From the NCBI RefSeq assembly GCF_053078305.1, contig NZ_CP166878.1: a stretch of DNA of 32,715 bases, one strand, 5' to 3'. The translations under genes were made by a program, and so were the position numbers. Origin of the DNA: a plasmid. How positions within the stretch are numbered: the stretch's first letter is position 1; each line of letters starts with the position of its first letter. Under the pieces are notes generated by a model, which searched no databases, had not been told where the DNA came from, and saw only the letters and a list, made by a program, of their open reading frames with translations. Shown here in pieces: positions 1-25,587 of this stretch.

Positions 1-1866
1 ATGCAAGCAAATGATGAGTTTCTTCGCTTGGTTTTTGAAAACATATGGCCATGGTGGACATATGCCTGGGTTTTAGTTTTTTCTTTGTTATGTGTGTTTA
101 CATTTTCGGGTCATGCAGAAAAAAGTGGTGATAAGAGTACTCTGCGTTTCATTATTGAAGCAGCCAGGAAGAAATTACTTGTTGCATGGATTTTATGTAC
201 TCTTTTGTTCTTTCTATTTGTGTACATAATAGCGTGGAAACACTTTGGGGAAGATTCACATAAAGCATCACTTTATATGGAGTTATTGTATGAGCGGATT
301 GGTGACAAATCTTTCTCATTTGGTGATTATTGTGGTATAGCATTTGTGCTACTTTTTCCCTATGCCTGTCAGATAATTAATCGCCGTCTTATAAGACCAA
401 AACTATCATCATGGCTTCGTCGTTTTCGTGTGTCTCAGACCTCGGATACTATGAGTGATATTCGTGTTGAGAAAGGTAAATATTCGCCTAAAAACTTCAA
501 TCCTTTAGATTATTATAAGGATGGTCATTTCTTTTTAGGATTAGATGAAAATGATAAAGCAATCTACGTTACAGATGACTATTTGTCTAAAGTAAATATT
601 AAAATTTTAGGCGCAACGCAAACGGGTAAAGGTGTTATTCAGGGGGTTATTGCAGACCAGGCAATATTGAAAAATTGGGGTTTGTGGTTCTGGGATCAGA
701 AACCAGATAAATTTATTTACTCGATTATGAAACAACGTTGTGAGTCAGAGGGGCGAGAAATATATGAAGTTGATTTGAATGGTGAAGGTATAGGTGATTA
801 TGCGCCATTTAAGAATGGTACAAAACGTGAAATTTTGGATAGGTTTTTTAATGCGTTTTCTCTTGAGACTGGCGGGACTGATGCAGACTATTACAAAAAT
901 AATGCACAGGAGGTTATGTACTATATATATACTTTTTGGGACCGTTCGTTAAACGATTTACAAAAATTGTTGTCTGGTAGTGATGATAGAATACCGGAGG
1001 AAAAACAGGAATGGATAGCTAAAAATGGAGCTAATATTCGAACGCAGCTTAATAAATGGTTAGAGCTTCCTTGTCTATCTCCCGCTGATGGTCAGGGATT
1101 AAATGTAACTGAACTGGTTAAGTCAGGTGCGGTTATTTATGTAAAAGGTAGCACAAAAGATAAGGTTGTCAGGGCTGTCTTAAAATCAATGTTGCGTGAG
1201 TGGTCTGCGGCTGTTATTCGTGAACAACCAAAAAATCATGTGTTGGGGATAATTGATGAGGCCCGTTTTGTTATCTCGTCAGAGGTTGCTGATAGTCTGG
1301 CAACTATATTATCCTCAAATGCAAGTTTGTCTATTGCATATCAAGAGAGAGATGACCTTTTAAATATACCGGATGAAAAACCGCAGATTGCTCAGTCAAT
1401 AAAAAAAGGGACGGAAACAAATACCAATTTGACACTTGTTTATCGTTGTAATGACGAGACGGCTGAATGGGTTGCCAAAAATTCTGGTACAACTGCGAAG
1501 AGTCTGACAAAACTTGAAGAAGTCGAAACTGACGGTTATGGCGCGGAAACATGGAAGGGACGACGAATGATTGGACAGGAAGAGGATTACTATATACCAG
1601 TAAATACGGTTCTTGCAGTTGAAGAACGAGTTGGTATTATGCAGACTATGTTTGAACTCAGTCGGGTTTTATTTACATGCTGGGTTCCTGTTCAACGTTT
1701 TTATACACTTCCGGCCCGCCCTCAAACGGAGCACGATAATGTTCAGGATTGTATAAAGAATGATGGTTCAATTTCTCCGAGTGATGAGGATTACTTTAAT
1801 CCTGACATGATTAGTGATGAAGAGCTAGCGATGATAAATAAAACAGTATCGTCAGACAGTAAATAA
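1..1866 (+). CDS. Type IV coupling protein (VirD4/TraG-like ATPase)
   Basis: The 621-aa ORF has hydrophobic N-terminal helices (WWTYAWVLVFSLLCVFTF and LLVAWILCTLLFFLFVYIIAW). It has a Walker A motif GATQTGKG and a Walker B-like motif VLGIIDEARF. It lies directly upstream of a VirB11-type ATPase. The ORF starts at window base 1, so the true 5' end may lie outside the window. Confidence 0.75.
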   Translation: MQANDEFLRLVFENIWPWWTYAWVLVFSLLCVFTFSGHAEKSGDKSTLRFIIEAARKKLLVAWILCTLLFFLFVYIIAWKHFGEDSHKASLYMELLYERIGDKSFSFGDYCGIAFVLLFPYACQIINRRLIRPKLSSWLRRFRVSQTSDTMSDIRVEKGKYSPKNFNPLDYYKDGHFFLGLDENDKAIYVTDDYLSKVNIKILGATQTGKGVIQGVIADQAILKNWGLWFWDQKPDKFIYSIMKQRCESEGREIYEVDLNGEGIGDYAPFKNGTKREILDRFFNAFSLETGGTDADYYKNNAQEVMYYIYTFWDRSLNDLQKLLSGSDDRIPEEKQEWIAKNGANIRTQLNKWLELPCLSPADGQGLNVTELVKSGAVIYVKGSTKDKVVRAVLKSMLREWSAAVIREQPKNHVLGIIDEARFVISSEVADSLATILSSNASLSIAYQERDDLLNIPDEKPQIAQSIKKGTETNTNLTLVYRCNDETAEWVAKNSGTTAKSLTKLEEVETDGYGAETWKGRRMIGQEEDYYIPVNTVLAVEERVGIMQTMFELSRVLFTCWVPVQRFYTLPARPQTEHDNVQDCIKNDGSISPSDEDYFNPDMISDEELAMINKTVSSDSK

Positions 1867-1870
1867 AATA

Positions 1871-1901
1871 AATCTGGCATCTAGCTGATGCCAGATTTTT
1901 T
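1871..1901 (+). terminator. Rho-independent terminator after the coupling-protein gene
   Basis: An 11-bp stem (aatctggcatc/gatgccagatt) with a 5-nt loop is followed by a T run, starting 5 bp after the stop codon. Confidence 0.7.
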
Positions 1902-1922
1902 AGTTAATAATATGGTGTACAT

Positions 1923-2987
1923 ATGGATAAAAAGACAAAAACATATCCTTTTGGTGACATTGAGTTTTTTGACCAGTTAGAGGAACATGCATGGGACCAG
2001 ATTCATGATGGTATGCTACCAATTATGGATTTGTATCTTGATCCGACAGTAACCGATATATTTATAAACAGGTATGACAATATATATACATCTGTCAATG
2101 GCAAGTATGTAAAGACCGACAGTTCCTTTTCCAGTGAACGGGCACTTAAAGCCTGGATTGATCAAATCGCAACGGTGTTGAGGCAGCCATTTTCAACGTC
2201 AGGAAACTATAAATATGGTGATGTCATTGAGCCTGTACTTGATGCCCGATTTCCCGATGGTTCCCGGTTGATGTGTACAGACCCGGTGATTTCACCGCAG
2301 GGTTCTACGGTAAGTCTTCGTAAAGTACCTAAGCAAATACTGGAAGAAAAAGATTTTATAAATTCCGGTATGTTGACGAGAGATATTCTTGATTATCTCA
2401 TTAGTGTTATACAAAAACGGAAAAATTTTATTGTTGCTGGTAATACTGGTTCTGGCAAAACATCACTTTTACGCTTGCTCGCCAGGTATATTGATACGAT
2501 GGAGCGTGTTATCACCGCCGAAGACACTCAAGAACTTCATATACACAGGTATTTTCCGTTAGGGATTGCTCTGGAAGCTGCACATCGTAAAGATGTGAAT
2601 GCGGATCTTCCTTCTCTGGTTCACCTGACTATGCGTGGTAATCCCGATCGTGTATGGGTTGGGGAGGTAAGAACGGCAGAGGCTATAGCTGCTTATTACA
2701 TGGTTCTGGCAAGTGGAACTATAGGTAATGCTACAACTCTGCACTCCGTTACCCCTATGGGGGCAATACGCAAAATGACCTGGCTTATGTCAAGCTATCT
2801 CAGTATCGATTTTCAGATAGCTCAGGATTTAATTATGTCAGAGGTTGACGTGATTATTCAGTGCCGGAGAACATCAAAGCATGGAAGAAGAATTACAGAT
2901 ATCGTCGAAATACGTGAAGGGAAAATTGTTCCTATATTCAAGTTTGATGAAGAGCAAGAAGTACATGTCAGGTTTGACAAAAAATGA
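1923..2987 (+). CDS. virB11: VirB11-family secretion ATPase
   Basis: The 354-aa ORF has the Walker A motif AGNTGSGKTSLLRLL. It also carries the downstream motifs ITAEDTQEL and RGNPDRVWVGEVR, which are typical of VirB11/CpaF hexameric ATPases. Confidence 0.85.
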   Translation: MDKKTKTYPFGDIEFFDQLEEHAWDQIHDGMLPIMDLYLDPTVTDIFINRYDNIYTSVNGKYVKTDSSFSSERALKAWIDQIATVLRQPFSTSGNYKYGDVIEPVLDARFPDGSRLMCTDPVISPQGSTVSLRKVPKQILEEKDFINSGMLTRDILDYLISVIQKRKNFIVAGNTGSGKTSLLRLLARYIDTMERVITAEDTQELHIHRYFPLGIALEAAHRKDVNADLPSLVHLTMRGNPDRVWVGEVRTAEAIAAYYMVLASGTIGNATTLHSVTPMGAIRKMTWLMSSYLSIDFQIAQDLIMSEVDVIIQCRRTSKHGRRITDIVEIREGKIVPIFKFDEEQEVHVRFDKK

Positions 2988-3000
2988 ACATTTAGCATTA

Positions 3001-3080
3001 TATGCTTATATGCTTATATGCTTATATGCTTATATGCTTATATGCTTATATGCTTATATGCTTATATGCTTATATGCTTA
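3001..3080. repeat. Perfect tandem array, 10 x 8 bp (TATGCTTA)
   Basis: Counted directly: ten uninterrupted TATGCTTA units. Degenerate units flank it (TAGCATTA at 2993-3000 and TATCATTG at 3081-3088). It starts 14 bp after the virB11 stop codon. Confidence 0.95.
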
Positions 3081-3105
3081 TATCATTGTGTTTGTGTGAA
3101 ATATT

Positions 3106-3299
3106 GCTGTAACATCGACGGTCTACGACCACCTACCACCTGAATAGCTGTAGGTTCCGTGCGGTCAGGCTTGGCAGGGGGCTGACGCGGTTCCTGGCGA
3201 CATGAAACTCCCTGGTTAGGGGTATCGGCGCGACCTGGCATCTGTGACTCTATAAAGCCATTTTTCGCGCCTTCCATGCCGCTAAAGCGGCATATTCCA
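3106..3299 (+). repeat. 194-bp dispersed non-coding repeat, copy A
   Basis: It runs from gctgtaacatcgacggtctacgacc to gccgctaaagcggcatattcca. It differs from copy C (18900-19093) at only 3 positions and from copy B (3962-4155) at roughly 20. All three copies are in the same orientation. Confidence 0.9.
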
Positions 3300-3366
3300 C
3301 ACTTCTAGATCCGGGGTTTTGGGTATATGCTATGTTTATATGCATAATTTATGTGGGGGGCTTGTT

Positions 3367-3612
3367 ATGAGAACAAATGTGGCAGTAAAAAAACGTAGTA
3401 TAAACGTATACTTAAATGCAGGGTTACTTGAAGAAGCAAAAGATCTTGATCTGAATGTTTCTGCTATCTCTAACAAAGCTCTCGAAAAAGCGGTAAGGGA
3501 GCGTAAGCGTGAACGCTGGATAGAAGAAAACCGTGCTGGCATTGAGGCATTAAACCGTTTTGTAGAAGATACCGGGATTTTTTCAGATGATGAAAATTTT
3601 GGGGTAATTTAG
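3367..3612 (+). CDS. ccdA: CcdA-family antitoxin
   Basis: The C-terminal half (RERWIEENRAGIEALNRFVEDTGIFSDDENF) parallels F-plasmid CcdA (RAERWKAENQEGMAEVARFIEMNGSFADENRDW, recalled from memory). I prefer the ATG at 3367, which is preceded by a GGGGGG ribosome-binding site, over the ORF-track start at 3319. The gene is coupled to ccdB. Confidence 0.85.
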   Translation: MRTNVAVKKRSINVYLNAGLLEEAKDLDLNVSAISNKALEKAVRERKRERWIEENRAGIEALNRFVEDTGIFSDDENFGVI

Positions 3613-3929
3613 TGAAACAATTTTCTGTCTACAAGAACAAATCGCGAAATAAACAGGCGTACCCCTATTTTATTGATATACAGGCAGAGATGCTTGCACA
3701 CCTTAACACCCGGTTGGTGATGCCTTTAACGCCAAAAGATAATTCAAACTCGCAGGTAAAGACGTTAACGCCAGTAATAAACATCAACCAGGTAGATTAT
3801 GTGGTTCTGACTACTATGATAACGACAACGGATGCAAAAAATCTGAACTCTGATAATGTCGTTATGGATGCTTCATATTTACGAGATCAACTGGTTTCTG
3901 CAATTGACATGATGATTCTGGGTATTTAA
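3612..3929 (+). CDS. ccdB: CcdB-family gyrase-poison toxin
   Basis: The 105-aa ORF starts with GTG, overlapping the ccdA stop codon. Its N-terminus (FSVYKNK...YPYFIDIQAEML...RLVMPL) and its C-terminus (AIDMMILGI) parallel F CcdB (FKVYTYK...RLFVDVQSDII...RMVIPL...AINLMFWGI, recalled from memory). Confidence 0.85.
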   Translation: MKQFSVYKNKSRNKQAYPYFIDIQAEMLAHLNTRLVMPLTPKDNSNSQVKTLTPVININQVDYVVLTTMITTTDAKNLNSDNVVMDASYLRDQLVSAIDMMILGI

Positions 3930-3961
3930 TTTTTGCAGGGTAGTAAATAGTAAAAAATATC

Positions 3962-4155
3962 GCTGTAACATCGACGGTCTACGACCACCTACCAGCCGAG
4001 TGGCTGTCTGTTCCGTGCAAATGGGCTTTGCAGGGGGCTGGCGCGGTTCCTGGCGACCTGAAAGCCCCTGGTTAGGGGTATCGGCGCGACCTGGCATCTG
4101 TGACTCTATGAAACCATTTTTCGCGCCTTCCATGCCGCTAAAGCGGCATATTCCA
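3962..4155 (+). repeat. 194-bp dispersed non-coding repeat, copy B
   Basis: It has the same ends and length as copies A and C. The divergent positions are clustered at about 3994-4046, with a few further downstream. It forms a direct repeat with copy A around ccdAB. Confidence 0.9.
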
Positions 4156-4233
4156 AACTTTGGAGCAGTTCTGCAATGTTGTTTGAATTGTTTCGTAGTC
4201 GTATCATTATTTTTTATGTGATGATTGTTTTTT

Positions 4234-4560
4234 TTATGTGTCTGACATTTTTCCAATCATGATTTCTGTGAGATTTGTATCAGCAAAATCTCCTTTCCCC
4301 GATTCAGTGTCAAAGTCGCCTGGCGTGAACTTATGTACGTCTTGCCAGACTGCGAAGCAGGTAGGGCATGTTACAGGTAGTTCGCCCTCCGCTATCTTTT
4401 CACAACTTTCTACCAGTTCTTGTTTCTCGTTGTACCTGATGTTATAGCCGCTTGTGCAAAGCGTTTCATACCCGTGAGCGCCCGTCACTATATGTGTGGC
4501 GGTTCTTTCTGTGATTTTTCCATCAACTAATAACTGTTCATGCGTTGTGATCGTTTGCAT
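4234..4560 (-). CDS. Hypothetical small acidic protein with a CPTC motif
   Basis: The 108-aa ORF is the only long frame in this interval and runs divergently from the T4SS operon. It has a single CxxC motif (VTCPTCF). I recognise no family. Confidence 0.5.
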   Translation of the reverse strand: MQTITTHEQLLVDGKITERTATHIVTGAHGYETLCTSGYNIRYNEKQELVESCEKIAEGELPVTCPTCFAVWQDVHKFTPGDFDTESGKGDFADTNLTEIMIGKMSDT

Positions 4561-4696
4561 GTCTGTCTCTCATAATTGTTGGTTTATGTGATTGTTGGGG
4601 CGACCGTAAAAATATACGCCAGATGATGGGAGAGCATCTTATTTCGTATTGCTCAAAAAAACATATGACAAATATCACAAAAATGAAGTGCAGGTA

Positions 4697-4735
4697 TTGA
4701 CATCGGGGGGGGGGGGGTAACGTAAAGATTATAAA
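4697..4735 (+). promoter_or_regulatory. Putative T4SS operon promoter containing a G13 homopolymer
   Basis: TTGACA lies at 4697-4702 and 13 consecutive G at 4705-4717. Several -10-like hexamers follow: TAACGT at 4718, TAAAGA at 4723 and TATAAA at 4730. The spacing from -35 to -10 therefore depends on the G-tract length. Confidence 0.4.
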
Positions 4736-4787
4736 TATAAATTTTACAAAACGTAAAAATATACTACGTCATTCGGTAAGAAATCAA

Positions 4788-5120
4788 ATGGCTGAAATAA
4801 AAGGAAAAATAACCAATCCCGCACTGGTTAATGCAAAAGTTTTTTACAACAGACGAACAAAGCTGGGGATACCTACAGAGGTCTTTTTGATCCTGATGTT
4901 CCTGAATGTTTTTGCTGTTGTGCTGTGTGTTATGTATTTCAGCACATTTTCCGTTATTTCGCTGATTTTATTTGTTCTGGTATCGGTTGTTCCTATGAAG
5001 TTCGTTTTTCATGGCGATCCCGATGCTCATAAAGCTTGGATTTATGGTTATTTGTCACCTTCCAGGCTGAACAATACCCACGCAGTGAAGCGTCGTATCA
5101 CATTTATAGACGCTATTTAG
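4788..5120 (+). CDS. VirB3/TrbD-like inner-membrane T4SS protein
   Basis: The 110-aa ORF is the first gene of the operon. A central hydrophobic hairpin follows an RRTKLGIP segment. The C-terminal HGDPDAHKAWIYGY resembles the TrbD segment ADPKMRFVYLRH (recalled from memory). Confidence 0.6.
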   Translation: MAEIKGKITNPALVNAKVFYNRRTKLGIPTEVFLILMFLNVFAVVLCVMYFSTFSVISLILFVLVSVVPMKFVFHGDPDAHKAWIYGYLSPSRLNNTHAVKRRITFIDAI

Positions 5121-5140
5121 GGATTTAACCAGTAAAAGAG

Positions 5141-5497
5141 GTGTATACAATGCTCAATCGCATTTCCAGAAAGATATCAACATTCCAGATAATGCTTTAC
5201 GTAGCATTAGTGACAGGAAGTGTCACACCGGCTATGGCTGCTGGTAATAGTACAGTTAAACTTCCTACGCCGGATGATAGTTTTTTACAGAAAATCGTTA
5301 ACTGGATGCAAAGTATTCTGGATCTGGTTGGTGGGGCTGGAGCTTTGTTCTTTGCGTTTGTCAGTGGGTTTGCTTGTATTGTGTTGTGGGGACTTGCACC
5401 GCAACAGAGCCAGGCTATCGGGAAACTGTTTCGTGCTGCTGTTGCAGCAATTGCAGCGTTTAACCTGGCGTTCTTTATTGCCTGGCTGCAAAAATGA
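5141..5497 (+). CDS. VirB2/TrbC-type pilin precursor
   Basis: The ORF has a long signal peptide ending in PAMAAG. Two hydrophobic helices follow (GGAGALFFAFVSGFACIVLWGL and AAVAAIAAFNLAFFIAWL), and it lies just upstream of virB4. The ATG at 5150 is the more likely start. Confidence 0.7.
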   Translation: MYTMLNRISRKISTFQIMLYVALVTGSVTPAMAAGNSTVKLPTPDDSFLQKIVNWMQSILDLVGGAGALFFAFVSGFACIVLWGLAPQQSQAIGKLFRAAVAAIAAFNLAFFIAWLQK

Positions 5498-5508
5498 GGT
5501 GATCCACG

Positions 5509-8109
5509 ATGGGGCAGAGCTATAACGAACATCTGAATCTGGCAGGCATCGAACAACATTCCGGGCAGGTGTATACCTATACTGGAGGTGCTTTTGGTGC
5601 TATTGAACTGACAGGTGTTGATCCAACGGGTGTTACCCCTTCTCAGGGTAGCCGTATTTCTTTATTACTTCGTAATATCGTTCAGTTACTGCCCCTTTCT
5701 GTCACACTGACTCAGTATTATATCCATAATGACGGCGTTAAGATCCGGCTGACAGGGCGTGATAATCAACGCAGTCAGTTACTTTCTATGCGTCGCCAGG
5801 CATATCTTAATAAATGTCGTAATTTAAATGCCTCAAGAATTATATGGACGCTGGATGTTCACCCGGAAGAGAATATTAATCGCCTGGCATCTGCCGAGTT
5901 TTTAAAGAATCTTTTTAACAGCATGTTTGATGACACAGCCAGACGTAAAGTCAGGCTGGCACTGTCAAATCGCGAATCGTTTATCATTGAGCGTCAGGCA
6001 TTTGAAAAACAGTGCCTGTTGCTGAAAGAAACATTACGCGATCTGGACTTACGCCTTTCTTTTATTTCAGAAGATAACAGGATTCTTGATTCAGAAGGGA
6101 TCTGGCGATTACAGAAGTTCCTTGCAACATTTAATCACCATTGGCTGGCTCCACGCCGTAAGGTCACTGTACCCAATGATATGTGGGATTGTCTGGCGAT
6201 TGAAGGTGACGATATCGAGGCCATTACCTGGCGTGGCGTTGATATGTTGAAGATCCAGGGGGTACGGCCTGTTTATGTTCGCCTGGCCAGTGTGTTGAAA
6301 ATAGGCGATGAATCTGTACCGGAATGTGCCTGGGCGCTGACAAATGGCAGACCAGTTTTACAGCGGGGTAACTACGTTTACTTCATGCGGTTCACTCCCG
6401 CCAGTGCCTTTAAGAAGTCACTGATGATCAGCGGGAAAGAAAACGAACTTGTCAGGACTCAAATCAGTTTGAGCGATTTAATGACTGACAGTACGAGCAA
6501 AGATATTCTCGATGAAAAATTGCGCAGAAATTCACATCTGATGAAGATGCGCGAAGAACTGGAGAATATTTCATATTCAGATGAGCGCCTGGGGATCTGC
6601 CAGGCCGGGATTGCTGTATTTAATACAGATCCCGATAAATTACTTGAGACTTGTGCGGATATTAACCGTAGTGTCTCTCAGACCATGCAAGTTGTATGGG
6701 AGACGGTAGCACAACTGGATGCTTACAAGGTTATGCAACCAGCCTACTCACGCAATACATTTCGTGCATTACAGCTTAACGCATCTCAGATGGGGGCGGC
6801 ATCCTTGTTCTTTAAATCCCATCCAGGTATTCCTGAATGGGAGCTAAATGGACGCATGGAGGAAGCCTTCTATATTCTTGAATCAGATGATGGCGTGCCG
6901 TTTTTCTTTACGCCAAAAGTTAAAGAAAAGCTACTGCTTCTTGGTAATGGGGCGACCCGTGGCGGCAAGACTTTTATGAAAAACTGTATTGCCAGCCATT
7001 TTATTAAATTCGGTGGTCTGTATAACTGTCTGGATATCGATCCTGGCTCTATCCCAATGGCTAATTTCTTTGGGGATGATGGGGCAGCATTTACCCTTGA
7101 TAGCGATTTTCAGTGTGGTTTTAACATGTTCAGTATGGCGCAAAGCAAGGATGACAGGGTATTTCTTGCGCATCTTATAGAGCAGTTAAAAGCAATGGCA
7201 GCAGAAAATGACAGTGAGCAGGATAAATATTTAACGCCTGATGAACTTGAAAATATAACAGTGTGTGCGAGTGATCTTCTTGTACAAAAATTTTCGCCGA
7301 ATGAGGGGCGTTTAAGCTCAATCACGTTGTCAACGCTGGTTTCTAAGTGTGGTCAGAGCGTTAAACGCAAGTTAGCGCCATTTATTAGTAATGGTATTTA
7401 TGGACGTTTATTTGATAACAAAGAGGACGCGATTGGTGTTCTTGATAAGCCGGTAGCTGTTTACAACCTTTCAGGTGTGAAAGATAACCATAATCTTGCG
7501 CGGCTTGTGCACCGTGAAATCTTCTTTCGTGTCGTTCGTTTGTTTGAATCACCGGAATATCGCACGATACCAAAGTTTTTTGAAATAGATGAGGCACAGT
7601 ACACCCTGTCTGTACCACATGCCGCAGAGTTCGCTACACAGAAAGCCCGAACCTGGTTTAAGCATGGTGGGGGTATGGGATTCTGGACTCAGAACCCGGA
7701 GCACTATTCATCACTGGATGAGTGGACTACGTTACGTTCCTCGGCGTCGGTGTTTATCTTTATGCCGGATAATGAGGCAACAGTTAAAGCATTCCATGAT
7801 GCTTATGGCTTCGATGAAGAAGAAGTGAATATTATTCGCAGCCTTAAGGTAAAACAGCAGTCGTATATAAAGATCCCGGACATGCAGATTGCAAAAGTGG
7901 TGAATCTGTTTGTTGAGGCTGAACAGTATGCTGTTTGTACATCAACGTCTAATGAAGCAGCCCTGGCAGCGGAAATATGGAAACGTGAATCAGATCCCGA
8001 TGTTGCAGTGCGACAGATTGTAGAAGGTCTGATAACGAAGTGTAATAAGGACTTGATCCCAACGCCTACAGAGACTGAAAAGGATAAAACGGAGGGGTTT
8101 TTCTTATGA
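5509..8109 (+). CDS. virB4: VirB4/TrbE-family T4SS ATPase
   Basis: The 866-aa ORF has the Walker A motif GNGATRGGKT and the Walker B motif KFFEIDEAQ. Its size and its position after the pilin and VirB3 genes fit VirB4. Confidence 0.9.
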   Translation: MGQSYNEHLNLAGIEQHSGQVYTYTGGAFGAIELTGVDPTGVTPSQGSRISLLLRNIVQLLPLSVTLTQYYIHNDGVKIRLTGRDNQRSQLLSMRRQAYLNKCRNLNASRIIWTLDVHPEENINRLASAEFLKNLFNSMFDDTARRKVRLALSNRESFIIERQAFEKQCLLLKETLRDLDLRLSFISEDNRILDSEGIWRLQKFLATFNHHWLAPRRKVTVPNDMWDCLAIEGDDIEAITWRGVDMLKIQGVRPVYVRLASVLKIGDESVPECAWALTNGRPVLQRGNYVYFMRFTPASAFKKSLMISGKENELVRTQISLSDLMTDSTSKDILDEKLRRNSHLMKMREELENISYSDERLGICQAGIAVFNTDPDKLLETCADINRSVSQTMQVVWETVAQLDAYKVMQPAYSRNTFRALQLNASQMGAASLFFKSHPGIPEWELNGRMEEAFYILESDDGVPFFFTPKVKEKLLLLGNGATRGGKTFMKNCIASHFIKFGGLYNCLDIDPGSIPMANFFGDDGAAFTLDSDFQCGFNMFSMAQSKDDRVFLAHLIEQLKAMAAENDSEQDKYLTPDELENITVCASDLLVQKFSPNEGRLSSITLSTLVSKCGQSVKRKLAPFISNGIYGRLFDNKEDAIGVLDKPVAVYNLSGVKDNHNLARLVHREIFFRVVRLFESPEYRTIPKFFEIDEAQYTLSVPHAAEFATQKARTWFKHGGGMGFWTQNPEHYSSLDEWTTLRSSASVFIFMPDNEATVKAFHDAYGFDEEEVNIIRSLKVKQQSYIKIPDMQIAKVVNLFVEAEQYAVCTSTSNEAALAAEIWKRESDPDVAVRQIVEGLITKCNKDLIPTPTETEKDKTEGFFL

Positions 8110-8924
8110 GAAAACAACTTGCAGTAGTCTTGTTTTCTGTAATGACAGGATTGATTACAACACCTGCTATTTCTGGCGTTCCTGTTGCGGATGCTGCTCA
8201 GATTCTTGGTCAGGCCAGGGCTATGATGCAGGATATCAAAAACTATAAAGAATATATGGAACAGACAATTCTCAATAATAAAGAATTGCTGGAAGCATAT
8301 AAGCAATACAACCAGATGCTTGAGGATTATAAGCAAATTTTACGTGAGGCCGAAGGGCTGAAAGATAAACTTTCATCGATTGACTATAAGAATTTTATGG
8401 ATGAAATAGCCCTTATCTCTAACCAGTTCGATCCCGTTTATGGCGGGGGGCGTATGGTTAAAAATACGGGTAATGCGCCGTGGGATAAAGCCTATGAGCG
8501 TAATTTGTTGCTTAATGGCTATGGGCTTACAAACGAAGAATATGCCGAAATGCTGGCAGCGATACCATATACGAGTGATGACCGCGAACGTGCCCGGCAG
8601 ATGTTTGAATATAGGCAGCGCAGGGTTGTTGAAGGGATTTCAAAAGATGCCTTTGTTGGTGAATTGCAAATACAATTAAAAAAGCAAGGAAAAACTCTAG
8701 GGGAATTACAGGAAAGACGTTTAAGGTTAGGTGATAACGATACGACAGCCTCTATCCAGTTTTTAGCTGAACAAAATGAACAACTGTTACAACAAATTCA
8801 GAGTTTACAGTTACAGCAAGCAGAGGCGATGAAATATAGTGGTCGTCTTGAGGATCACTATTTTAACAAGCGAGCGCAACAGGAAGAATTAAAGGCACGT
8901 CAGTTACAGAGGGCATGGCAATGA
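8106..8924 (+). CDS. VirB5/TrbJ-like periplasmic T4SS protein
   Basis: The ORF has a signal peptide followed by GVPVADAAQILGQARAMMQD and long Q/E/K-rich coiled-coil segments, as in TrbJ/VirB5. Its start overlaps the virB4 stop codon (ATGA). Confidence 0.6.
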   Translation: MRKQLAVVLFSVMTGLITTPAISGVPVADAAQILGQARAMMQDIKNYKEYMEQTILNNKELLEAYKQYNQMLEDYKQILREAEGLKDKLSSIDYKNFMDEIALISNQFDPVYGGGRMVKNTGNAPWDKAYERNLLLNGYGLTNEEYAEMLAAIPYTSDDRERARQMFEYRQRRVVEGISKDAFVGELQIQLKKQGKTLGELQERRLRLGDNDTTASIQFLAEQNEQLLQQIQSLQLQQAEAMKYSGRLEDHYFNKRAQQEELKARQLQRAWQ

Positions 8925-16994: not shown

Positions 16995-17291
16995 TTGAGC
17001 ACGGCAAGAAGACAAATGGAGAGTATGATGATGGTCTGTATACTTGTTGTGTCAAATAACGGTCGGGAAGAATTGATTGATTTTAATCCCGATCATGATT
17101 TAGCGCACATTATCAAATCATACCGGACACCAGAAAACAGGATGGTATGTATTATCCAGGATGGTAAGCGCATTCTTCGTTGGGATCGCAGTTATGCTTC
17201 CCGTGCAAAAAATCACTGGCGTAAGGTAGATCCAGACAGTTTTGAGATTTTAGGGTCTGTTGAATATCTCCGCTATGTTGGTCAGGGTTAG
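16995..17291 (+). CDS. Hypothetical protein
   Basis: This 98-aa ORF contains several internal Met codons, so the true start is uncertain. Its stop codon lies 2 bp before the Tn21-like inverted repeat at 17294. I recognise no family. Confidence 0.4.
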   Translation: MSTARRQMESMMMVCILVVSNNGREELIDFNPDHDLAHIIKSYRTPENRMVCIIQDGKRILRWDRSYASRAKNHWRKVDPDSFEILGSVEYLRYVGQG

Positions 17292-17293
17292 TT

Positions 17294-17327
17294 GGGGCGT
17301 TGAAAACGGAAAATAACCCACGCTAAG
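17294..17327 (+). repeat. Tn3-family (Tn21-like) terminal inverted repeat, outer end to the left
   Basis: GGGGCGTTGAAAACGGAAAATAACCCACGCTAAG resembles the Tn21/Tn501 inverted repeat (..CAGAAAACGGAAAATAAAGCACGCTAAG, recalled from memory). It has the family hallmarks of a GGGG start and a TAAG end. Confidence 0.7.
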
Positions 17328-17644
17328 ACTGTTTTTTAACCAGGCTATGATAATGCTATCTGTGACGGATGATGGTCGTTGCTCTTTTGTTAATGCTAAC
17401 GGATGCGTACATTAGCATTAACTTTTTGTGTTATGTTGCACGTGAATTTTTGAGTTTTAATATTTATATAATGTTATGAATATTAAAGATAAATGATGAA
17501 CATGCTTTGTGATGGCTTTTGGCGCATAGATTGATCTTAAGATCTGCGCATGTTATTTTTATGCGGTTTTGACGAATTTATAAGGGTAGGACGTTCCCGT
17601 AACAGCGTCCAGGGGAGGGGGTAGCGAATTTATAGCCCCCGGAA

Positions 17645-20965: not shown

Positions 20966-21124
20966 GTGGAACTGATAACAGATAATTTTTTTGAGTGGGT
21001 GGTGGCTCTCGCTATTTTGAATTTTATCGTCACGTTGAAATCTAAAGAGAAAATAACTTTGTTGTTAACGACGATAATTAGCCTACTTATTGCTTCAATT
21101 ATATTGAGGGCAGTTTGGATATAG
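20966..21124 (+). CDS. Possible 52-aa two-helix membrane peptide
   Basis: It is absent from the ORF track because it is under 60 aa. The GTG start is preceded by an AAGGGA ribosome-binding site, and there are two hydrophobic stretches. Its last codons (GCA GTT TGG ATA TAG) lie inside junction-motif copy 2. Confidence 0.3.
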   Translation: MELITDNFFEWVVALAILNFIVTLKSKEKITLLLTTIISLLIASIILRAVWI

Positions 21125-21134
21125 AGAATTTTAC
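21113..21134 (+). repeat. Junction motif, copy 2
   Basis: GTTTGGATATAGAGAATTTTAC. The similarity to copy 3 also extends about 10 bp to the left (tattgagggca versus tattggggtca). Confidence 0.7.
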
Positions 21135-21211
21135 AAAATGAACTGTGCTATTTATCAATATCATTGATAAACACACTCTAATAATCACTCTTTACAGGAA
21201 ATGTACTCACT

Positions 21212-21529
21212 ATGATTATTAATCGAGAAAAATTTGAAATTATCAGAAAAATCATTCATGACACTCTGCTGGGTAATATTGCGCTCGTCGTTATTGCATT
21301 AATGTCTCCGGTTCTGTTAGATAAAATAGCGGAGCCTTTTAATATTATTATAGCTTCCGCCATGTCGATTTCCTTTATATTTATTCTTTGCTGGCTGGCT
21401 TCTTCAATCTGGTTGTACGCAGGAGAACTTGCGAAAAATAAAAGTTTAAGATGTACTCTTTTTATACTATGGGCACTGAGTGCTGAGGGTTCAATTATTT
21501 TAACTGCGAGAGATATTATTTTATGGTAA
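21212..21529 (+). CDS. Small integral membrane protein (3 transmembrane helices), unknown function
   Basis: The 105-aa ORF has three hydrophobic segments. I recognise no family. Confidence 0.55.
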   Translation: MIINREKFEIIRKIIHDTLLGNIALVVIALMSPVLLDKIAEPFNIIIASAMSISFIFILCWLASSIWLYAGELAKNKSLRCTLFILWALSAEGSIILTARDIILW

Positions 21530-21622
21530 TGATCGTGGCGCGATTGCCAGCGAGCTAGGGGTTCCGTGGGAATTTCTGCGATAGGGGTTTGAAGCCCAAC
21601 CGTACGAAAACGTACGCTAAGT

Positions 21623-21862
21623 TCATTTCTTGAACAACCTGGCTGACTCTATGTATTTGTACAGCGTTGGCCTCGATATCCCCATCAACACACAAATCTG
21701 CGCAACGGTATGTTTTTTCTCGTTATAGAGTTGAACAGCAAGGGCCTGTTTATCCTTACTCAGTGTTTTCGGCCTGCCGCCCTTACGTCCTCTGGCTCGT
21801 GCTGCTTGAAGCCCGGCCTGAGTTCTCTGGGGGGTCGCGCCCATTTCCTCTAAAAGTCTCAC
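21623..21862 (-). pseudogene. tnpR: Serine recombinase (resolvase) fragment, C-terminal HTH part only
   Basis: AGLQAARARGRKGGRPKTLSKDK...ICVLMGISRPTLYKYI is the linker and HTH domain of a resolvase. The roughly 100-aa catalytic N-terminal domain is missing. The stop codon lies 1 bp from the 38-bp inverted repeat. Confidence 0.75.
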
Positions 21863-21885
21863 CTTGCTTAGGTAATTAATTGAAT

Positions 21886-22085
21886 TTATTTATAAAACAT
21901 TGCAATTTTAGCATCATTTTTTATTGTTCTTTTTAACCTGAAGTACGTCGATCGAGAGATACCTGTTTTTTCTGTCACACTGCCCAGAGATTCTCCCTGT
22001 GATATAAGCTCCAACGCTGTAGGCGTTCGTGGATGCTTCTTCCTGCCAAATTTTACGCCTGCGGCAAGTGCCGCTATTGGGGTCA
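21886..22085 (-). pseudogene. Second serine recombinase C-terminal fragment
   Basis: I translated the minus strand by hand: ..PIAALAAGVKFGRKKHPRTPTALELISQGESLGSVTEKTGISRSTYFRLKRT.. followed by a stop. There is no start codon, and the frame is cut exactly at junction-motif copy 3. Confidence 0.6.
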
Positions 22086-22109
22086 GTTTGGATATAGAGA
22101 ATTATTGTA
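22086..22109 (+). repeat. Junction motif, copy 3
   Basis: GTTTGGATATAGAGAATTATTGTA marks the point where the second recombinase fragment is truncated. Confidence 0.7.
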
Positions 22110-22404
22110 CGGCAAGCCTGTTTTTTGAACAGACTTACCTATCGCGATAGGGTGTACTCCCGTGCTATACGGCGTTTTCAGGGGCTTTGGCCTTAATCGG
22201 ATAACCTAAATGCGACATAGCAAGAGCGATAACTTAAAGGCGATAGCCGCTGATGTTAAATCAATACGTTAGAATCTTAAATTGATTAAATAATGCGCTT
22301 AACGTACAAAAATTTCCGTTTCCCAAACCGCCCCCATATTGTACGTTTCCCTAACCGACCCCTTACTGGTCGCGGAAAAATCCAGGTTTCCGGCCTGGAA
22401 CCCC

Positions 22405-22536
22405 TATACAATCACTTGATTCGATAATTATAAAATTAAGTGATTTTATGATTGCATGATTCTATGAGCATGGGATTATTAGAATGTTTGGCAGAGGTAC
22501 TATGTGAACAAAGGGGAGGGGAAAATGCCTAAAGTT
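22405..22536 (+). repeat. Orphan duplicate of the parA promoter/operator and first parA codons
   Basis: This 132 bp aligns without gaps to 24844-24975, with about 10 substitutions. It includes the inverted-repeat operator, the ribosome-binding site and ATG CCT AAA GTT, after which the sequence diverges. Confidence 0.85.
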
Positions 22537-22614
22537 GGAGCAGCGGGAGCGTTCGAACAGAGACTTACGGTTTCGTTCTTTGTGCAGCAGTTGAAACCGT
22601 AATTATTTGTTTTA

Positions 22615-22865
22615 GGGGTTTGAGGCTCAGTGGAACAATAACCGCCGTTAAGCGGTCATTTTAAATAGCCAAAAATCAACCAGCCAATTTACATCGTGAA
22701 TCTGCGTTCTTGGCTATCTGTTTTGGGGGGCCAAGTTGGCTTTACTCATCCTGGCCGTTTGCGGAACAAAAGACGTTGTTGATCTCAACAGATTGATTAA
22801 CCTGTTATTGACCATTCAATTGAACCGCTTAACCGCCTTTTGAGTTCCACTACTCCCCAAACCCC
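22615..22865. mobile_element. Miniature Tn3-derived element (TIME-like), 251 bp, with target-site duplication
   Basis: The 38-bp ends are GGGGTTTGAGGCTCAGTGGAACAATAACCGCCGTTAAG (22615-22652) and, read as reverse complement, GGGGTTTGGGGAGTAGTGGAACTCAAAAGGCGGTTAAG (22828-22865). The first 22 nt resemble the Tn3 inverted repeat as I recall it. An identical 5-bp flank, TTTTA, lies at 22610-22614 and 22866-22870. There is no ORF. Confidence 0.8.
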
Positions 22866-22882
22866 TTTTATGCCAAGTAGAA

Positions 22883-23091
22883 GGGGTTTGAGGGCCAACC
22901 GTACGAAAACGTACGGTAAGAGGAAAATTATCGTCTTAAAAATCGATTAGTAGACAATGCCGTCCGTTAAGTGCCAATTTTCGATTAAAAAGACACCGTT
23001 TTGATGGCGTTTTTCTATGTCCATTATGTTTTGATATATCAGACAGTTACTTCACTAACGTACGTTTTCGTTCCATTGGACTTCAGCCCCC
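22883..23091. mobile_element. Miniature Tn3-derived element carrying res-like sites, 209 bp, with target-site duplication
   Basis: The ends are GGGGTTTGAGGGCCAACCGTACGAAAACGTACGGTAAG (22883-22920) and, read as reverse complement, GGGGGCTGAAGTCCAATGGAACGAAAACGTACGTTAGTG (23053-23091). The 5-bp flank TAGAA lies at 22878-22882 and 23092-23096. The interior has TGTC..GACA-type res-like subsites, for example TGTCCATTATGTTTTGATATATCAGACA at 23018-23045. Confidence 0.8.
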
Positions 23092-23111
23092 TAGAATACG
23101 TCAGATGTGTT

Positions 23112-23333
23112 CTACCTAGATTGTAGAGACTGAATTAGTGCTTCTACTGCCCAATCAGGACAGGTTCTGGAGCTTGGTTTATCCGGGTCATTAATCCAGG
23201 AACGGATAGTTCTTACAGAGCATGGTCGGTGAGTGTATTCACAAATTAGGTTCGCGGCTTGCGCCTGGGTTAACCCGTTATCAGTCAGTAACGTTATAAA
23301 TGCGGCACGGTTATCTGACACTATAAACCCCAT
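23112..23333 (-). CDS. Small HTH-type DNA-binding protein
   Basis: The 73-aa ORF has an HTH-like segment, NGLTQAQAANLICEYTHRPCSVRTIRSWIN. It overlaps the 3' end of the upstream membrane-protein gene by 23 nt. Confidence 0.55.
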   Translation of the reverse strand: MGFIVSDNRAAFITLLTDNGLTQAQAANLICEYTHRPCSVRTIRSWINDPDKPSSRTCPDWAVEALIQSLQSR

Positions 23334-23805
23334 CTTTTTTGAACGTAATGCTAACCTGCCCTTCTGTCGGAACCTCCATTACTTCCCGGATCTTTTTATT
23401 TATGGCAATTTCGGTAGCGCTCACAAAGATCGGAATCCCTTTTGCCGCTATGCTGATAGCTACGGCAATAACCGTCAAAGCAATACAGTAGTATGTTATT
23501 ACTCTAATAATTTCAGCTATATTCTCAGAGGGGGAGTTTCTTAGAAATGTTATTAAATGTATTAATTCTGCTTGATGATAAATAGAATAAAACATAATAG
23601 AGGCAATAAATATTGCGAAACCATGAACAAAATAATGCCAGAGTTTAAGGGGTATTCTCCAAGCAAATCCAATGTAACTGAAAACTGAAGCCACATGAGT
23701 TCTCCAGTCTTTTTTTACTGATTTAACTATTTCTTCATATTGTGATATTGGCATTGAGCCGACTTCAATATTATTGACTTTAACTATCGCTATGCCCTCT
23801 TGCAT
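23311..23805 (-). CDS. Integral membrane protein, unknown function
   Basis: I prefer the ATG at 23805, which has an AAGGAGAA ribosome-binding site 7 nt upstream, over the ORF-track start at 23898. The protein has a soluble N-terminal part and then at least three hydrophobic helices. Confidence 0.55.
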   Translation of the reverse strand: MQEGIAIVKVNNIEVGSMPISQYEEIVKSVKKDWRTHVASVFSYIGFAWRIPLKLWHYFVHGFAIFIASIMFYSIYHQAELIHLITFLRNSPSENIAEIIRVITYYCIALTVIAVAISIAAKGIPIFVSATEIAINKKIREVMEVPTEGQVSITFKKDGVYSVR

Positions 23806-23917
23806 GACTTTGTTCTCCTTCTGCCATGATAAAAGATCTTGTTTTACATACCATGATAGGCACATGTGCCTGTTTGGTGCAACATGCTTTACAAACATAA
23901 GAATAATAAAAGGATAT

Positions 23918-24843: not shown

Positions 24844-24942
24844 TATACAATCACTTGATTCGATAATCATAAAATCAAGTGATTTTATGATTGCATAATT
24901 TTATGAGTATGAGATTATTAGAATGTTTGGCAGAGGTACTAT
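24844..24942 (+). promoter_or_regulatory. parA promoter/operator region with a 12-bp inverted repeat
   Basis: AATCACTTGATT (24849-24860) and AATCAAGTGATT (24873-24884) are perfect inverted repeats separated by 12 bp. Repeated ATGATT/TATGAG motifs follow. Confidence 0.55.
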
Positions 24943-24963
24943 GTGAACAAAGGGGAGGGGCAA

Positions 24964-25587
24964 ATGCCTAAAGTTATAGCATTTTTAAATGGTAAGGGGG
25001 GGGTGTCTAAGACAACCTCGGCAGTCAATATTGCTACTGCTCTTGCTCGTAAGGGATACAAAGTTGTCGTTGTGGATACCGATCCTCAGGGAAGTGTTAG
25101 TAACTGGTATGATGACAGTAAGTGTGTTTTTGATGTAGCAGAAGCTACGACAGAAAAAGAAATTTACCGTTTGCGGAAGGCGCTTCCTTTGCACGATTTT
25201 ATCATTATTGATGGTGCTGCGGCGATTTCGGCGATATCGGCAGCTGCTGTTATGGTTTCTGATCTTGTCATTATCCCAGTTACTCCTTCGCCGCTTGATT
25301 TTGCTGCATGTGGCGCGATATTGGCAGTGATAGAAGCTCGGCAGGATTTACGCCCGGTGATTGCTCGCTTTTTGATTACTAAAAAAGTACAGCAAACGCA
25401 TATGCTATCTTTGCTGAAAGAATCTATTGCAGAAACAAGCATACCAGCATTAAAAACAGGAACGTCGTACAGGCAGTCATATATAAAGTCTATGCTAGAT
25501 GGTGGTACTATATTTGATACAAAAGATAGTGCTGCTAAAGGTGAAATATCAGTCATTACAGAAGAAATACTTGGACTATTAAAATGA
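24964..25587 (+). CDS. parA: ParA-family partition ATPase (small, type Ib-like)
   Basis: The ORF has the deviant Walker A motif [16 protein letters not shown], followed by [11 protein letters not shown] and IIIDGAAA. The ATG at 24964 has a GGAGGGG ribosome-binding site. The ORF track begins at the GTG at 24943. Confidence 0.9.

Follow-up and report, generated by a model that had tools for sequence, protein, structure and literature searches.

A nested cluster of Tn3-family miniature elements and transposon ends at one junction of a 32-kb Escherichia coli plasmid family

The locus and its terminal repeats

This work concerns a cluster of Tn3-family transposon ends at 21558-23096 of a 32,715-nucleotide plasmid stretch (NCBI contig NZ_CP166878.1), the whole of which is called the window below. 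The window resembles E. coli plasmids of about 28-35 kb (CP088859.1, CP061000.1, pEc631_3 and pFHI_NMBU_11_03, together with an NCBI contig and Logan contigs), and it carries an IncFII-RepA-like replication gene, a Replicase-family gene, a ParA/ParG partition pair and type IV secretion genes encoding a T2SSE ATPase and TrbI. The cluster sits in a variable, non-coding stretch of this roughly 32-kb plasmid family, where the backbone, compared with that of the relatives, is interrupted between ...gcgagcta (21557) and aacataagaataa... (23894). Within 1.5 kb it holds three complete TIMEs (miniature elements with inverted repeats, derived from Tn3), two or more TIME remnants and two transposon ends. 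We propose that the region very probably arose by serial replicative transposition, as an accumulation of non-autonomous Tn3-family TIMEs and decapitated transposon ends; this reading is drawn from comparison of its sequence with that of other replicons, which are cited by record numbers (L001 and so on) where they need to be told apart.

Eleven Tn3-family termini lie within 1534 bp. Seven of them are full 38-bp ends (21584, 22079, 22335 on the minus strand, 22615, 22865 on the minus strand, 22883, and 23091 on the minus strand), two are ends of about 43 bp (21829, and 22404 on the minus strand) and two are truncated (21558-21583, and 22336-22363 on the minus strand). The strict pattern GGGG-N34-TAAG matches five times in the 32.7-kb window, always within 21584-22920, where 0.64 matches per window are expected by chance and none of 100 shuffles reached five. 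Homology in other replicons stops exactly at the GGGG tip of each end, and the 38-bp ends are identical to gamma-delta ends at 30-34 of 38 positions and to the Tn3 end at 25-31 of 38. An earlier note on this DNA, made from its letters alone, had reported at least nine GGGG...TAAG-type repeats in about 1.5 kb and had assigned them to the Tn3 family; the pattern and profile scans, the homology limits and the likeness to gamma-delta bear out both the assignment and the coordinates and clustering, the count now being 11. The terminal-repeat profile was trained on the same seven 38-bp ends, which makes their recovery by it circular. Scanning the rest of the window with this profile revealed no comparable end except a weak candidate at 17286. 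This sole candidate outside the cluster (17286-17327, plus strand; profile E 0.25) is a solitary Tn21/Tn1721-type repeat-like sequence, GGGGCGTTGAAAACGGAAAATAACCCACGCTAAG, near the replication genes.

In autonomous Tn3-family transposons, the DDE transposase, TnpA, is about 1000 aa long. None of the open reading frames (ORFs) in the window exceeds 866 aa, the best tblastn hit with three Tn3-family TnpA proteins against the window has an E value of 0.12, and tblastn found no full-length resolvase encoded there. The plasmid stretch thus holds neither tnpA nor a full resolvase, in line with the earlier statement that a transposase is missing, and all that is left of autonomous transposons is two end fragments of 245 bp and 250 bp. 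The three complete TIMEs, of 209, 251 and 257 bp, fall within the TIME size range of about 50-500 bp and likewise have no transposase gene. Most TIMEs are single-copy per genome, possibly due to immunity (Szuplewska et al., PMC4133298); therefore, three TIMEs plus remnants in 1.5 kb are unusually dense. The cluster is denser than usual, yet it is built from ordinary parts. A composite arrangement (TIME-COMP) of the whole block, in which two copies of one TIME would bracket a segment between matching 5-bp duplications, was considered and rejected, as the three complete TIMEs belong to different families and the outer flanks do not match: the only long-range inverted pair joins the 21584 end with the 23091 end (82% complementary), and these are flanked by CGATA and TAGAA, respectively. 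The exact mosaic of the cluster has no match in PLSDB or among complete E. coli RefSeq genomes.

Two miniature elements inserted 12 bp apart

Two of the complete elements carry intact flanks, as the earlier note had described. The first is a 251-bp TIME at 22615-22865 (plus strand), with Tn3-like 38-bp ends (left GGGGTTTGAGGCTCAGTGGAACAATAACCGCCGTTAAG, right GGGGTTTGGGGAGTAGTGGAACTCAAAAGGCGGTTAAG) and no ORF, between two copies of TTTTA at 22610-22614 and 22866-22870. The second, of 209 bp at 22883-23091 (minus strand), lies between two copies of TAGAA at 22878-22882 and 23092-23096. All four pentamers are read directly. When both elements and one copy of each pentamer are removed from the window, the reconstructed pre-insertion sequence, cagcagttgaaaccgtaattatttgTTTTAtgccaagTAGAAtacgtcagatgtgttctacctagattgta, is identical at 72 of 72 positions to the uninterrupted sequence in four relatives (L018, L019, L020 and L021), where each pentamer occurs as a single copy. 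These empty sites were reached via protein homologues of the neighbouring 164-aa gene; an exact empty-site scan of species-representative genomes gave no match. Past each 5-bp duplication, the sequences on the two sides are unrelated for both elements. TTTTA and TAGAA are thus proven to be genuine target duplications, not part of a larger repeat, and the flanks are direct evidence of transposition, as had been claimed. In the empty site the two pentamers start 12 bp apart (TTTTA tgccaag TAGAA), which is the spacing given earlier. There is also a reciprocal case: L020 has the 251-bp TIME elsewhere, flanked by the duplication ATAAA(A), at a position for which the window provides the empty site. 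The flanks in the window and in L018 and L019 are about 99% identical, and the two insertions are therefore recent. The locus accordingly records two recent and independent insertions into targets 12 bp apart.

The 209-bp element is a variant of IS101, an already-known element described about 1980-85. It aligns without gaps to positions 2022-2232 of pSC101, identical at 198 of 211 positions (94%), in the reverse of the published orientation from left to right inverted repeat (IRL to IRR); this pSC101 interval is the IS101 sequence of Table S2 in Gomi and Yano 2026 (PMC13367494). The copy in L001 is 99.5% identical, and at a coverage of at least 80% IS101 is found on about 382 PLSDB plasmids, with alignments ending at the element tips. 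Like IS101 of pSC101, the window element is 209 bp long, has gamma-delta-like 38-bp ends, an internal res site in the order III-II-I and a 5-bp duplication; unlike it, the window copy has 13 substitutions, one of which makes the right tip GGGGG while another falls at the centre of res site I, and lies 17 bp from another TIME.

The res site of this IS101 copy spans 22932-23045 (plus strand), with site III at 22932-22956 (25 bp), a 5-bp spacer, site II at 22962-22995 (34 bp), a 22-bp spacer and site I at 23018-23045 (28 bp). We overlaid the 114-bp gamma-delta res of plasmid F, from between tnpR and tnpA, ungapped on both strands of the window; 22932-23045 is the best placement, with 62 of 114 positions identical (next best 50, mean 30.4, standard deviation 4.9, z about 6.4). 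Subsite lengths and spacers are identical between the two sites, and the canonical lengths for Tn3/gamma-delta res agree with the plasmid F sequence. The res-like subsites recognised earlier in this element are thus part of a conserved layout. IS101 is reported to be mobilised by the Tn1000 transposase (Ishizaki and Ohtsubo 1985, cited by both PMC13367494 and PMC4133298) and carries a resolution site that one source calls functional and the other poorly functional (PMC13367494; PMC4133298); this site reportedly works, poorly, with the Tn3 and Tn1000 resolvases (PMC4133298). Judging from the layout, the window copy could resolve cointegrates or multimers given a Tn3- or gamma-delta-type resolvase in trans. 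The idea of a portable res in the 209-bp element is right, but it dates from the 1985 literature on IS101. At its centre, site I (23018-23045) reads TT in the window, TC in IS101 of pSC101 and AT in gamma-delta. The centre is the strand-exchange point, so that dinucleotide variants may differ in resolution efficiency or mutual compatibility.

The 251-bp TIME belongs to a widespread and apparently unnamed family. At a coverage of at least 80% it is present on at least 126 PLSDB plasmids, mostly E. coli IncF, as well as on one E. coli chromosome and, at 81-86% identity, in Erwinia genomes. It occurs with at least 10 distinct flanks, its alignments stop at the tips, and other copies are flanked by their own duplications, including GTTTT (L015) and TAGTT (the E. 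coli chromosome, L017). It has no similarity to the published TIME244, IMU, IS101 and MITESen1 sequences, and a literal search of searchable papers for its end sequences gave no match. Neither gamma-delta res nor the res region of either donor transposon described below resembles its core above shuffled background. With TIME244, IMU and TIME1-4 it shares a length of about 250 bp, 38-bp Tn3-family ends, the lack of an ORF, 5-bp (once 6-bp) duplications and a location mostly on plasmids. It differs from the described TIMEs in that its ends belong to the Tn3 subgroup, not the Tn21 subgroup, and in that neither antibiotic-resistance cargo nor a composite structure surrounds it here.

Candidates for the parent of the 251-bp TIME came from several searches. 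Two partial PLSDB matches (H146 and H147) were rejected, as they have no adjacent tnpA. A complete 3.9-kb tnpA-tnpR Tn3-family transposon lies at 1-3882 of a metagenome contig (L039, MWVT01000563.1), with a third copy of its end at 8210; its ends are identical to those of the 251-bp TIME over the first 23 nucleotides and at 31 of 38 positions overall, and its TnpA is 46-47% identical to gamma-delta-type TnpA. We regard this transposon as a candidate relative of the parent. A second metagenome contig (L038, Ga0209371_1002264) has a Tn3-type end that shares its first 84 bp (92%) with the 251-bp TIME. At 2639-5948 this end flanks an AAA_21 ATPase gene paired with a UvrD-like helicase gene, which may be defence-type cargo of the parent transposon.

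The left staircase and the older element at the junction

The left side of the cluster begins at the backbone junction with a truncated terminal repeat, here called IR-b, at 21558-21583 (plus strand). These are the outer 26 of 38 bp; the intact repeat, GGGG(G/T)(T/C)CCGTGGGAATTTCTGCGATAACACCCGCTAAG, which ends in ...ACACCCGCTAAG, is present in L004, L005 and L020, and its inner 12 bp occur nowhere in the window. In L020, an element of 295 bp with IR-b ends is flanked by the 5-bp duplication GTTAA. The truncated copy in the window is a remnant of this further TIME family, different from those described above.

IR-b is cut after 26 bp by an intact 38-bp repeat at 21584-21621 (plus strand), which bears out the nesting reported in the earlier note. 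This repeat belongs to a gamma-delta-like autonomous transposon of the type found on the enterotoxigenic E. coli plasmid p948: 21584-21828 matches the tnpR-side end of the tnpR/tnpA transposon in NC_017724 (L010) at 99.6% identity. Next to the repeat lies a 3' fragment of tnpR (21626-21828, minus strand; stop codon 21623-21625) that retains the last ~68 codons, about residues 121-188. It matches the C-terminus of the full resolvase by tblastn (E 1e-41) and Pfam HTH_7 (E 1.2e-12; 48.1 bits against a gathering score of 23.8), and nucleotide homology ends at 21828. The p948-type transposon resembles Tn1000 (gamma-delta) in its TnpA (63% identical to gamma-delta TnpA in the L010 donor) and its repeat (32 of 38 positions). 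It differs from Tn1000 in that only 245 bp of it remain here, its resolvase is only 33% identical to that of gamma-delta, and its tnpR-tnpA intergenic region, compared with the IS101 core, has no gamma-delta-type res signal.

At 21828/21829 the p948-type tnpR is in turn cut by the end of a second autonomous Tn3-family transposon, with a repeat of about 43 bp at 21829-21873 (plus strand). Here 21829-22078 matches, at 99.2% identity, the end of a 4-kb tnpR/tnpA transposon that is complete in the sister plasmid pFHI_NMBU_11_03 (L011) and flanked there by the duplication AACAT. Its tnpR fragment (21889-22077, minus strand; stop codon 21886-21888) comprises the last 63 codons, residues 131-193, with 98.4% identity to the full resolvase by tblastn (E 4e-37); the Pfam HTH_7 match is sub-threshold (E 0.002; 18.7 bits against the 23.8-bit cut-off). 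Two resolvase C-terminal fragments had been noticed earlier, and by these near-identities both are identifiable as the ends of two known autonomous transposons that have full copies elsewhere.

The second transposon end abuts the intact left end of a complete 257-bp TIME at 22079-22335 (plus strand), which had been overlooked as a complete element. It is 88% identical end to end to the ISfinder element MITESen1 (a global alignment of 258 columns has 227 matches; the reference sequence is that of Gomi and Yano 2026, Table S2, PMC13367494), with 37 of 38 positions identical over the first 38 bp of the left repeat. Unlike MITESen1, it measures 257 instead of 256 bp, its right third has diverged and it has no intact duplication; it is best called a MITESen1 variant. 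Comparison of the cluster with published Tn3-derived miniature elements thus recognised variants of two of them, IS101 and MITESen1. The core of the MITESen1 variant, compared with gamma-delta res and both donor res regions, likewise shows no res-like similarity above shuffled background. L006 carries a related element of 236 bp between copies of the duplication TATAA, and the corresponding empty site is seen in L005.

Four ends of the same orientation, each cutting the preceding element, thus form a nested staircase on the left side. The MITESen1 variant is followed by the 28-bp outer part of a Tn3-type repeat (22336-22363, minus strand), which is half of a back-to-back repeat doublet. The doublet is intact in L005, with which 22336-22397 is 97% identical (L005 1959-1898), and the right flank of the MITESen1 variant (ATATT gtacgtttccc...) is its second half; the other half is absent from the window. 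At 22364-22404 (minus strand) lies the terminal repeat IR-a (GGGGTTCCAGGCCGGAAACCTGGATTTTTCCGCGACCAGTAA), the right end of an ancestral miniature element. IR-a is present at the backbone junction in L001, L004 and L005, and this type of repeat is also the insertion site of the 251-bp TIME in IncF plasmids.

An older miniature element occupies the same backbone junction family-wide. Tn3-type ends are found at this left junction in seven of seven relatives examined, with differing occupants: a 211-bp element in L005; the same 211-bp element plus the 236-bp TIME with its TATAA duplication in L006; a 261-bp mosaic in L004; IS101 inside a repeat in L001; the 251-bp TIME inside a repeat, abutting an IS101 remnant, in L018; and the 295-bp element with its GTTAA duplication in L020. 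The constant presence of some Tn3-type end could mean that the array is kept for a selected function, either as target immunity against multiple transposons or, through the res of IS101, for multimer resolution. A single terminal repeat is sufficient for Tn3 immunity. The res is complete in architecture, and some activity is reported for it, as cited above. However, the window encodes no cognate resolvase or transposase, sister plasmids have different occupants, many of them truncated, a pattern that marks decay and not conservation, and the repeated insertion of elements with related ends into one replicon argues against effective immunity. We consider such a function highly improbable.

The same comparison bears on a plainer alternative, in which the junction is merely a harmless site in a compact plasmid where insertions are tolerated, most of the cluster having been inherited vertically or exchanged by homologous recombination among related plasmids, and target preference plays no part. 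All examined relatives share the oldest element (IR-b/IR-a). Furthermore, the neighbouring segment (22405-22542, plus strand) repeats the parA promoter and first codons (24844-24981) at 93% identity; this copy is context and not part of any transposon, and it indicates recombination with a diverged relative. IncP-1 plasmids, too, have a small number of accessory "recombinational hot spots", including one beside parA (PMC4914505). They are alike in that lineage-specific arrivals enter one or two intergenic sites near partition genes in a conserved backbone; unlike there, the arrivals here are nearly all miniature or decapitated and free of cargo, and the plasmid is much smaller. Against tolerance, at least five lineage-specific events fall within about 1 kb of the original target, whereas the rest of the 32.7 kb has at most one weak relic, and two insertions 12 bp apart are hard to ascribe to tolerance alone. 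This alternative also overlaps with serial transposition, as it disputes only the word "hotspot" and not the nature of the elements. We regard it as possible, while leaning against it.

The cluster and its surroundings hold several further features. The parA promoter copy is also present in L018 and L019; it includes the first eight codons, fused to a short unrelated ORF (MPKVGAAGAFEQRLTVSFFVQQLKP), and its start coincides with the tip of a Tn3-type end, as it does in L018, where the end-like sequence is a different one. A gene pair at 23112-23805 (minus strand) encodes a 73-aa protein resembling helix-turn-helix proteins and a 164-aa protein with hydrophobic segments, the real start of the latter being an internal Met of a 195-aa ORF. 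Scans of the neighbouring small ORFs, including this pair, against Pfam, NCBIfam and PADLOC gave no matches, and 23092-23893 has no megablast match in PLSDB. Homologues (38-99% identical) occur on contigs of about 30 kb from E. coli, Salmonella, Pantoea, Yersinia, Klebsiella and Proteus. The segment 23092-23893 was considered as transposon cargo and rejected, as the homologues of the 164-aa gene lie on ~30-kb contigs of the same plasmid family. At about 2930-3540 of L018rc, a 155-aa ORF lies between two copies of the palindromic attaatgctaatgtatgcatacattagcattaatg, a motif related to which occurs at 17385-17420 in the window; this may be another small mobile or recombination module.

Two further observations concern MITESen1. 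At 21106-21130, GAGGGCAGTTTGGATATAGAGAATT matches 23 of the first 25 nucleotides of the MITESen1 left end, and relatives of the L005/L006/L007 type diverge exactly there; the region of about 21106-21544, with a 105-aa ORF, may be a relic of a transposon parental to MITESen1. In pNE1280 (L002 2501-3585) and about 25 similar KPC plasmids, a Tn21-type end cuts off a 64-bp remnant of the left end of MITESen1, and an IS101 copy lies 810 bp downstream, all of it unannotated.

History of the cluster and target choice

Serial replicative transposition, the reading we prefer, would have used TnpA supplied in trans from co-resident autonomous Tn3-family transposons, each event duplicating 5 bp of A+T-rich target. 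The likely helper is a Tn1000 (gamma-delta)-like TnpA for IS101, according to the literature, and a Tn3-subgroup TnpA for the 251-bp TIME, judged from repeat similarity. For the left side we propose the following steps. First, the gamma-delta-like transposon would have entered the terminal repeat of the old element. Second, the second transposon would have inserted into its tnpR. Third, the MITESen1-like TIME would have entered the central repeat doublet of the old element. Fourth, a single deletion with one endpoint within the second tnpR and the other at the left tip of the MITESen1-like element would have removed both tnpA genes. Such a deletion is what replicative transposition is expected to yield when it occurs within one molecule. 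This deletion would explain the absence of both tnpA genes, and the absence of the missing halves of the truncated elements from the window is what it predicts.

Several points weigh against this account. The MITESen1 variant is flanked by CTATT on the left and ATATT on the right, without a clean duplication. No parent of the 251-bp TIME was found among enterobacterial records, and scans of GTDB and metagenomes gave only diverged candidates. Several copies of the 251-bp TIME elsewhere have no duplications and abut other Tn3-type elements; therefore, recombination or deletion at repeats contributes besides insertion. The order of the left-side events is based on parsimony. Finally, the repeats of IS101 are identical at 35 of 38 positions to the gamma-delta-like end 1.3 kb away, and classical target immunity might therefore have blocked one of the two arrivals.

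The term "hotspot", used in the earlier note, can be kept in part: the clustering is real, but it owes something to inheritance from an ancestral insertion common to the plasmid family and to at least one deletion, and an active target preference is a possible reading only. The eight target duplications are 87.5% A+T, against 59% for the window, and Tn3-family elements have a known preference for A+T-rich targets. Beyond base composition, heterologous Tn3-family repeats, or their protein-DNA complexes, could themselves be preferred targets, so that the junction would act as a self-reinforcing landing pad. Indeed, insertions into or beside foreign ends recur. The gamma-delta-like end lies inside IR-b at nucleotide 26, and in L018 the 251-bp TIME lies inside IR-b at nucleotide 18; the 251-bp TIME has also entered repeats of the IR-a type, in IncF plasmids and in two metagenome contigs, IS101 lies inside IR-a in L001, and MITESen1 is interrupted by a Tn21-type end in pNE1280 and in about 25 KPC plasmids similar to it. 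In addition, the 236-bp TIME lies exactly at the IR-b tip in L006, the 251-bp TIME abuts a MITESen1-family element in L014, and the two proven insertions in the window are only 12 bp apart. On the other hand, the sample is biased toward this plasmid family and toward matches to these elements, many of the abutting junctions have no duplications and may be products of deletion or recombination, and other copies lie far from any repeat (L015, L017 and L020). Moreover, Tn3-family elements show target immunity toward homologous ends, and for such ends this classical immunity predicts the opposite. Target immunity in the family is also raised in PMC4133298.

Active attraction is thus unlikely as the explanation of this cluster. 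The nesting of TIMEs in each other's ends is a hint that could reflect attraction and could equally reflect sampling bias, tolerance, or deletion and recombination. The general proposition that heterologous Tn3-family repeats are insertion attractors, the opposite of target immunity, with elements preferentially nesting in or beside each other's ends, seems to us quite improbable. If it were true, landing pads would grow by themselves and could shape where resistance transposons land on plasmids.

Returning to serial transposition of miniature elements, the cluster belongs to a described class, the TIMEs, its most striking member is the long-known IS101, and it is no new kind of system. What appears to be new is the apparently unnamed 251-bp family, the further TIME with IR-b ends, the documented pair of recent insertions and the hint of nesting. 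TIMEs are routinely missed by annotation pipelines, and in the databases searched all features under the TIME matches bear the label "none" or "hypothetical". Recent work shows that resistance genes, blaKPC-2 among them, can be mobilised by TIME pairs (PMC13367494). The 251-bp family is frequent among IncF virulence and resistance plasmids of E. coli, and on pNE1280-type plasmids the same nested TIME debris lies beside clinically important resistance regions. The locus provides a clean case of two recent TIME insertions, proven by sequence and with their empty sites known, and a compact natural test case for target choice by Tn3-family elements where foreign ends are already present.

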